Assembly (NCBI RefSeq): GCF_055900595.2
Contig: NZ_CM148325.1
Length of the DNA: 64,000 bases
Strand: one strand, 5' to 3'
Part shown: in pieces, positions 7,341-7,658 of the stretch
Numbering within the stretch: the first letter of the stretch is position 1
Layout of the letters: every line of letters begins with the position of its first letter
Notes under the pieces: model-generated
Databases searched by the model: none
What the model was told of the DNA's origin: nothing
The model's input: the letters and a program-made list of their open reading frames with translations, nothing else
Made by a program: the position numbers and the translations under genes

Positions 7341-7658
7341 AATTCCCCTCTCTTTTGCAATAAACGTGTTTTCTCTGGTGGGTTGATTACCCAGTCTTTT
7401 TTACTGTGTCTGACATTTTGTACTGTGGTGCAGTTGTAATGCAAACCTTCCGGGCTTTTGGGACACAGCATTTCAGTCCGGGCCCCATCATTACCATTTT
7501 GTTGATTCGAAACGAAAACCCTCACCAATATCGATCGATTTTACCGATCGATATGATCACATCGATCGGTTGTAACCATTTTACCCTGTCTTTTGCATGG
7601 TTTTAAAATAGGCAACCCTCTTTGTCGGGTAGGGCAAGAACCAACGGAGATGATTGAA

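Follow-up and report, generated by a model that had tools for sequence, protein, structure and literature searches.

A conserved GATC cluster upstream of an Escherichia coli Hra/Hek/Tia-family adhesin gene is a probable Dam-sensitive operator for a LysR-type regulator

The 64,000 nt stretch analyzed here (the window; contig NZ_CM148325.1) is an E. coli island located at the tRNA-Phe gene pheV, and carries, shortly upstream of a gene for an outer-membrane protein (OMP) of the heat-resistant agglutinin adhesin family, a tight cluster of palindromes, every one of which holds GATC, the target of the Dam methyltransferase. From the sites themselves, how they are conserved, how they fit validated sites and where they lie, beside a conserved promoter-like sequence, we conclude that the cluster most likely is a Dam-methylation-sensitive operator for a tetrameric LysR-type regulator, situated directly upstream of the predicted promoter of this Hra/Hek/Tia-family gene and functioning as an epigenetic switch. 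After replication, Dam and the regulator would compete for two GATC-containing boxes, A (7534–7548) and B (7565–7579): if the regulator bound first, the GATCs would be shielded from methylation, and if Dam methylated first, binding of the regulator would be blocked. Both states would then be inherited, splitting a clonal population into adhesin-ON and adhesin-OFF lineages. Given a switch, OxyR would be the most likely partner of this allele, with about an even chance of being the right one, and HdfR the main alternative, with a distinctly smaller share of the probability.

The GATC cluster and the adhesin gene

The region reads ...aatATCGATCGATTTTACCGATCGATATGATCACATCGATCGGTTGTAACCATTTTACCctg... 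and had drawn attention in a preliminary description of this DNA, which noted three closely spaced copies of a palindrome and a repeated TTTTACC, and interpreted them as a repeated operator for a dimeric regulator, between the OMP gene and a divergent hns paralog. A pattern search located the palindromes ATCGATCG/CGATCGAT at 7530–7537/7532–7539 (overlapping, as ATCGATCGAT, in 7530–7539), 7545–7552 and 7561–7568, and TTTTACC twice, at 7539–7545 and 7579–7585. The cluster does precede the OMP gene, at 91–129 bp from the start codon (initially given as 70–130 bp), which is at 7659, not 7660, and lies ~190 bp away from where the divergent hns-like gene begins. Outside the cluster there is one further ATCGATCG/CGATCGAT copy in the window, at 36725; the window-wide count of this 8-mer is ordinary (5 found vs. 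2.7 expected), and the clustering is the unusual part.

The four GATCs, at 7533–7536 (GATC1), 7546–7549 (GATC2), 7555–7558 (GATC3) and 7564–7567 (GATC4), are spaced by 13, 9, and 9 bp, and are the only ones within 7300–7700. They form the densest GATC group of the window and include its sole 13+9 or 13+18 triple, with the remaining three-GATC clusters sitting within coding sequence. One of these, at 28535–28557, packs three GATCs with a spacing of 11+9 into 23 bp of ansB, at the 3′ end of its coding sequence; it holds the sole other 9-bp GATC pair of the window and appears to be coding, not regulatory.

Half-site A is bounded by GATC1 on the left and GATC2 on the right, and half-site B has GATC4 at its left edge. 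GATC3 lies inside a 9-bp insertion (7553–7561, ATGATCACA) and is the center of a 28-bp near-perfect palindrome (7543–7570, ACCGATCGATATGA followed by TCACATCGATCGGT, 93% complementary) that spans GATC2, GATC3, and GATC4. Superimposed on this arrangement is a 19-nt direct repeat (7530–7548 and 7561–7579) with a spacing of 31 bp.

The OMP gene (7659–8396, plus strand) encodes a 245 aa outer-membrane beta-barrel adhesin of the 8-strand type, assigned to the Hra1/Hek/Tia family from its Pfam match (OMP_b-brl, 1.6e-20) and its identity to named members: 70% to the products of genes annotated as tia and 62–98% to other members from E. coli. Its homologs carry the names Tia and, for a Salmonella homolog in UniRef, "Heat resistant agglutinin 1." By sequence, the gene is thus a member of the heat-resistant agglutinin (Hra1/Hek/Tia/Hes) adhesin family, and an adhesin role is predicted for the product of this allele. 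According to reviews, Hra1, Hek, Tia, and Hes are autoaggregating adhesin-invasins of extraintestinal pathogenic (ExPEC), enterotoxigenic (ETEC), enteroaggregative (EAEC) and Shiga toxin-producing (STEC) E. coli, and have been associated with neonatal meningitis, urinary tract infection, ETEC, EAEC, and STEC negative for the enterocyte effacement locus (LEE).

Conservation and distribution of the cluster

Conservation in orthologous upstream regions, which had been put forward as a test, was strong: in E. coli and in two lineages of Salmonella, homologs that are 49–100% identical are preceded by the GATC trio with its spacing intact, whereas the flanking sequences diverge. In an alignment of five sequences from E. 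coli and Salmonella (alignment A3), 20 out of 26 columns are invariant within the block, vs. 22 out of 137 elsewhere (Fisher p = 2e-9), and invariant runs of at least 4 nt are limited to GATCGATTT, CGATC, and CGATC. Judging from these alignments, the GATC cluster is a sharp phylogenetic footprint and the best-conserved non-coding block between the two genera. GATC2 is invariant in all the alleles examined, and GATC1, constant throughout the E. coli/Salmonella alignment, is lost (GATT) only in an allele linked to atoS; conversely, there is free variation in the bases that separate GATC2 from GATC3 (GATT, GTTA, TATA, GAAC, GAGC). The cluster is kept whether its neighbor is an hns remnant, an integrase remnant, atoS, subA, or an IS element, and in divergent family members it lies at a constant distance from the conserved promoter-like sequence. 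Further upstream, the block at 7504–7519 aligns with a conserved TTCGATAAGAAAT element found ~22 bp before GATC1 in other alleles.

The majority of the alleles contain three GATCs, as catGATCGATTTTGTCGATCGATTCGATCGAA, spaced 13+9, whereas a 9-bp insertion, found only in hns-linked alleles (alignment A2), adds a fourth GATC in these, including that of the window. This indel, which reads ATGATCACA here and ATGATCGTA in the Tia allele linked to hns, distinguishes the four-GATC from the three-GATC alleles. In the alignment, GATC4 is the positional equivalent of GATC3 from the three-GATC alleles, which do not have the 28-bp palindrome; they have the promoter-proximal, GATC-edged box in the same place relative to the -35, with box A 22 bp away, not 31 bp. 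In these sequences, therefore, we observe that the 9-bp indel toggles the spacing of the boxes between two canonical OxyR half-site spacings, 22 and 31 bp. Two homologs from Salmonella enterica (49–51% protein identity) retain GATC-13-GATC-9-GATC in otherwise diverged surrounding DNA, and the DNA preceding a Yersinia similis homolog (39% identical), which is not alignable, contains GATCGGCCGTAACGATC and then a GATC 18 bp on, giving a second GATC-edged box at the same 31-bp spacing.

Among 5426 complete E. coli genomes, 211 carried the four-GATC allele, 1087 the three-GATC allele and 1682 any homologous module. Strain ATCC 11775 has an exact copy of the three-GATC module, and the virulence-associated surface protein that the switch would control is present in about a quarter of E. 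coli genomes. A species-wide genome scan retrieved 6 loci only, as the family occurs almost exclusively in E. coli and Salmonella, and a degenerate-pattern scan of metagenomes yielded relevant loci in 3 of the 120 scanned, the rest being swamped by chance matches in high-GC environmental contigs.

The module was also found preceding other genes. In some E. coli, the GATC trio and the -10 precede a gene for a 122-aa hypothetical protein with no Pfam match (L010:1490-3025, L012:1462-2997, and L155 among the loci we retrieved); at these loci, the OMP start codon is destroyed (GAGCTT), and 200 bp later comes a Hra-family gene whose upstream region is different and free of GATC. Likewise, GATC-13-GATC-9-GATC with a TATAAAAT/TAGAAT -10 lies upstream of operons for two small exported proteins, of about 154 aa and 112–120 aa and with no Pfam match, that adjoin genes for dynamin-like (LeoA-type) GTPases in other Enterobacteriaceae contigs (L146, minus strand, around 2681; L158:7100-8200; L160, minus strand, around 953; and L159). 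The motif is therefore not specific to Hra-family genes. Since it moves with the promoter and heads different genes, on islands without hns and WYL, it points to a factor encoded in the core genome, and by its distribution the module is portable and independent of any island-encoded regulator. An island-encoded partner, either the hns paralog or the WYL protein, was discarded, as most contexts carry the module without them; other loci carry instead leoCBA or a phosphoethanolamine transferase gene beside the OMP gene.

The promoter and the candidate regulator

The sole plus-strand sigma-70-like match upstream of the OMP gene is a promoter predicted from consensus and conservation at 7580–7609, with a -35 TTTACC (7580–7585), an 18-bp spacer and a -10 TAAAAT (7604–7609), from which transcription would start near 7616. 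It is followed by the ribosome-binding region CGGAGAT (7645–7651, plus strand), which is constant in alignment A2; ten alleles share it unchanged, together with TTTTACC and TTTA.AAT. The second TTTTACC, previously considered an operator repeat, is instead the predicted -35 region. Half-site B abuts this weak -35 and, with a start near 7616, boxes A and B would be centered at ~-76 and ~-45. On the minus strand, a promoter-like match (7578–7607; TTTAAA/TTAAAA, 17–18 bp, TAAAAT) fully overlaps the predicted OMP promoter and would transcribe leftward through the GATC cluster toward the hns-like gene, in an agn43-like geometry for that gene; this match may simply reflect the A/T-rich symmetric sequence.

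The GATC pair spaced by 13 bp yields G-ATCGnTnnnAnCGAT-C, that is, a LysR-type ATC-N9-GAT box equivalent to the OxyR dimer consensus ATAGnTnnnAnCTAT after substitution of the A/T in each arm. Together, GATC1 and GATC2 form GATCGATTTTACCGATC, an exact fit to GATCGnTnnnAnCGATC, which is also fitted by validated methylation-sensitive OxyR half-sites: that of agn43 (GATCGTTTATATCGATC) and both GATC pairs of phage P22 gtr, whose half-sites were validated experimentally (Broadbent 2010). Half-site A (7534–7548, ATCGATTTTACCGAT) and half-site B (7565–7579, ATCGGTTGTAACCAT), 31 bp apart, each score 8/10 against the OxyR consensus, and GATC4 forms the edge of the latter. A GATC-pair box of 13 bp plus a second box at 31 bp fits a tetrameric LysR-type regulator rather than the three equivalent operators for a simple dimer that had been proposed. 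Of this proposal, we retain a conserved cis-regulatory element by the OMP promoter, probably a protein-binding site made of repeated dyads, to which we add the Dam/GATC core that had been missed.

We crudely scored pairs of half-sites against the OxyR consensus, out of 20, and calibrated the scores on known sites. The window scored 16/20 (spacing 31 bp), the same as oxyR-oxyS (22 bp) and agn43 (32 bp); among the other known sites, P22 gtr reached 18/20 (32 bp), Mu mom 14/20 (31 bp), katG 14/20 (31 or 22 bp, tied top pairs) and ahpC 13/20 (30 or 22 bp, tied top pairs). As for the homologs, the Y. similis sequence scored 15/20 (31 bp), the Salmonella allele L022 15/20 (22 bp), and the common E. 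coli three-GATC allele 12/20 (32 or 33 bp, tied top pairs). A score of 16 was reached by only 0.3% of the 181-bp pieces drawn at random from the window, and a half-site spacing of ~32 bp has been called canonical for reduced OxyR at gtr and opvAB. As in the OxyR/Dam class, the GATCs are within the predicted regulator site, with GATC1 and GATC2 flanking box A and GATC4 edging box B; in sequence terms, this allele has the features of the OxyR class and a part of those of the std class.

As for the direction of the switch, we slightly favor ON for the unmethylated state with bound regulator and OFF for the methylated state, because box B abuts a weak -35, the boxes are placed like the OxyR-binding sites OBS_C and OBS_D of opvAB, and the bound state of std is also ON. 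This would be the least secure step of the proposal.

Several points weigh against an OxyR/Dam switch. From the sequence we infer protein binding, protection from and sensitivity to methylation, bistability and its direction, and the promoter and transcription start are predictions from consensus and conservation. Four GATCs in 35 bp anywhere in 64 kb are mildly improbable (P = 0.047, uniform placement), and GATC density by itself is suggestive, not decisive, with a few such clusters expected per genome; we judged the cluster to be meaningful because it is conserved, not because it is dense. Nevertheless, the alleles share ancestry, and part of the conservation is inheritance, not independent retention. 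The homologs examined from Providencia and from one E. coli clade do not have the cluster, which therefore characterizes one clade rather than the protein family as a whole. The commonest three-GATC allele, at 12/20, makes a poor full OxyR site. Inside box A, GATTTTGTC is conserved beyond what the OxyR consensus demands, an excess that hints at a different or additional protein. Finally, likeness to std outside the GATCs is modest, 11–14 of 28 positions (40–50%), and the best-conserved part of the module (GATC1 plus box A, including GATTTTGTC) corresponds to the part, with GATC-1, that is dispensable in std.

Alternative explanations

The alternative that survives best, although we deem it unlikely, is that the partner is HdfR and not OxyR, and that the cluster is an activator site of the std type antagonized by Dam, with HdfR on the 9-bp pairs GATC2–GATC3 and GATC3–GATC4. 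The upstream activating sequence of Salmonella std contains GATCs at -242, -229, and -220 (13+9), and HdfR, also of the LysR type, binds it only when unmethylated, needs GATC-2 and GATC-3, and drives the ON state (García-Pastor 2019). We retrieved the std region (L162), which reads tacGATCataatcatcGATCgtatcGATCtattttt, and verified the 13+9 spacing, identical to that of the three-GATC alleles and of GATC1–GATC3 in the window; both share the framework aC-GATC...TCGATCG...CGATC, then a T-rich stretch. Additionally, the atoS-linked allele that lost GATC1 kept GATC2 and GATC3, as fits an HdfR-type site, and in the window GATC2, GATC3, and GATC4 make two inverted 9-bp pairs. Against HdfR, apart from the modest identity and the mismatch in the conserved part described above, the Yersinia homolog has a 13+18 spacing without a 9-bp pair, and the std site is located ~220–240 bp upstream of stdA, whereas the site here abuts the -35. 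Moreover, the annotation around the locus shows no feedback genes like stdE/stdF, and a scan of five adjacent proteins gave no match to them (0/5). The K-12 hdfR autoregulatory region, in turn, showed no convincing similarity. The GATC-2/GATC-3 region of std also forms an ATC-N9-GAT box (ATCGATCGTATCGAT), with 8/10 against the OxyR half-site consensus, and the std operon (L162:14798-17316, Salmonella enterica) adjoins genes for an Ail/Lom-family OMP and for YfdX.

It is improbable that the ATCGATCG palindromes are ordinary, methylation-independent sites for a dimeric repressor or activator, with incidental GATCs. Such an operator would agree with the palindromic structure and its conservation beside a promoter, and with the conservation of the interior of box A beyond the GATCs. 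However, the invariance among E. coli, Salmonella, and Yersinia concerns specifically the GATC tetranucleotides and how they are spaced, with free variation between GATC2 and GATC3, and no island-encoded regulator is common to all contexts. Besides, methylation of an adenine within a recognition sequence usually affects protein binding.

Much less probable still is an effect of Dam and SeqA only, in which hemimethylated GATCs would bind SeqA or alter promoter strength, causing a modulation by the cell cycle or by Dam levels with neither a competing factor nor heritable states. GATC1 is on the same helical face as GATC3 (22 bp) and GATC4 (31 bp), which suits SeqA pairs, and SeqA is an ancillary factor at opvAB. 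GATCs are also generally depleted upstream of transcription starts (Mehershahi 2021), so that a cluster in this position is likely to matter. Nonetheless, this explanation does not account for the ATC-N9-GAT box, the second half-site at 31 bp and the conserved non-GATC bases.

Lastly, we give hardly any credit to a non-functional sequence or recombination scar, either a short tandem or inverted duplication of CGATCGAT carried with the cassette or an 11-6-11 palindrome resembling a tyrosine-recombinase core for cassette movement, since, in spite of the 9-bp indel separating allele types, the integrase remnants upstream of many loci and the first megablast alignments, which seemed to break near the cluster, a sensitive alignment extended the homology 30–50 bp upstream of GATC1 in all allele types, ruling out a breakpoint at the cluster, the 28-bp palindrome is missing from the three-GATC alleles, and the cluster is the best-conserved non-coding block between genera.

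Other known types of control were also rejected. Matches to the Fur, CRP, and Lrp consensus sequences in the region were no better than background, which discards CRP; the best Fur-box match (12/19, no better than 24% of random windows) is outside the cluster, ruling out a Fur/Dam switch of the sci1 type. A pap-type Lrp switch is ruled out by the wrong GATC geometry, the background level of the Lrp match and the absence of papI- or papB-like genes among the neighboring genes examined, and a known RNA element by the lack of Rfam matches in 7300–7700.

Gene context on the pheV island

Positions 6900–8450 of the window (1551 bases compared) are 100% identical to E. coli APEC O2-211. The gene order is hsdS (the S subunit of a type I restriction-modification system), the scr sucrose regulon, an H-NS-family pseudogene, the 318-bp intergenic region containing the cluster, the OMP gene, and genes for a WYL regulator and for two proteins with matches to PDC-M09A and PDC-M40B. 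The divergent hns paralog mentioned in the preliminary description is indeed beside the cluster (6966–7340, minus strand), but is a frameshifted pseudogene according to the annotation of the identical APEC O2-211 locus, and is not needed, as most loci with the module have no hns. The H-NS-family gene is also a pseudogene beside the Tia allele of strain 800 (L002), and this paralog seems to be decaying wherever it accompanies this OMP.

Directly 3′ of the OMP gene are a WYL-domain regulator (8817–9713) and two proteins with matches to PDC-M09A (9762–10841) and PDC-M40B (10888–12459), both of them candidate defense families of PADLOC. This trio is also found downstream of a Hek-like gene in strain HB-Coli0 (L003), and may be an uncharacterized anti-phage system on the pheV island. 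In both E. coli and Salmonella, genes for a phosphoethanolamine transferase (sulfatase family, EptA-like) or leoCBA dynamin-like genes repeatedly adjoin Hra-family OMP genes (L005, L006, L020, L026, and L028, and at about 13100–14800 of the window).

Significance of a putative switch at Hra-family genes

Full-text searches retrieved nothing that connects Dam, OxyR, HdfR, or phase variation with Hra, Hek, Tia, or Hes, and their partial coverage of subscription journals leaves room for a prior description. Likewise, literature searches returned no paper printing these sequences and no account of the regulation of Hra1, Hek, Tia, or Hes, and the locus is not listed in the published methylome studies examined. 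A 2025 review indicates that the discovery of new epigenetic phase-variable loci lags behind that of other mechanisms, and an unidentified phase-variable autoagglutinin has been noted in EAEC 042.

More tentatively, and with somewhat less than an even chance of being correct, the portable GATC-13-GATC-9-GATC module plus its weak promoter could be an unrecognized and widespread family of Dam-dependent promoters of Enterobacteriaceae with a std-like GATC geometry. This family would confer heritable ON/OFF expression to Hra/Hek/Tia/Hes in about 25–30% of E. coli and in some Salmonella, and also to the unrelated small exported proteins encoded beside dynamin-like GTPase genes; the 9-bp indel, with box spacings of 22 vs. 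31 bp (of the types for oxidized and reduced OxyR, respectively), would create two versions of the switch differing in logic or in switching rates.

If a switch exists, these adhesin-invasins would be expressed by a subpopulation only, affecting the interpretation of knock-out phenotypes, vaccine targeting and autoaggregation assays. A motif-defined family in >1,000 sequenced genomes would also extend the very short list comprising pap-like systems, agn43, gtr, opvAB, std, and sci1, and the natural variants with 22- and 31-bp spacing would be a ready-made experiment on half-site geometry and switch behavior.

Comparison with known Dam-dependent switches

The predicted switch, so far undescribed at Hra-family genes, resembles the known kind represented by agn43, gtr, opvAB, mom, and std. 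Its likeness to pap is confined to pap being a Dam-dependent heritable switch of an E. coli adhesin found on pathogenicity islands; pap requires a PapI-like protein, Lrp sites and a pair of GATC boxes separated by 102 bp, whereas the GATCs here are all within 35 bp. As occurs in std, there are three GATCs in 25 bp upstream of an adhesin, and the partner would be a LysR-type protein blocked by methylation, with an unmethylated, bound ON state; in contrast, std requires a StdE/StdF feedback loop, for which we found no such genes around the locus.

The resemblance extends to the OxyR-dependent systems. In P22 gtr, GATC pairs 13 bp apart flank an OxyR half-site and the half-sites are 32 bp apart. 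In opvAB, for which OxyR is an activator, OBS_C and OBS_D are centered at -75 and -43, with OBS_D immediately upstream of the -35, positions very close to those predicted for boxes A and B. However, gtr and opvAB contain three or four half-sites with alternative occupancy, both states being bound by OxyR, and control genes that modify lipopolysaccharide (LPS), not adhesins, whereas here we found two clear half-sites. The mom gene of phage Mu also has three GATCs (18+13) and half-sites 31 bp apart, in a site upstream of the promoter, but is a phage DNA-modification gene that is repressed by OxyR, and for which phase variation is not established.

Finally, agn43 (flu) also controls a self-associating surface adhesin and contains three GATCs inside its OxyR site: two GATCs 13 bp apart enclose one half-site (GATCGTTTATATCGATC), and the other has a single GATC on its inner edge, with a spacing of 32 bp, vs. 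31 bp here, and the same score of 16/20. Conversely, the agn43 site is downstream of the promoter, OxyR represses and the methylated state is ON, whereas the site here is upstream of the -35 and has an extra central GATC, and OxyR binding is predicted. The orientation of the half-sites is also mirrored, and the arrangement of GATC1, GATC2, and GATC4 (13+18) is the mirror image of those from mom (18+13) and agn43 (19+13).

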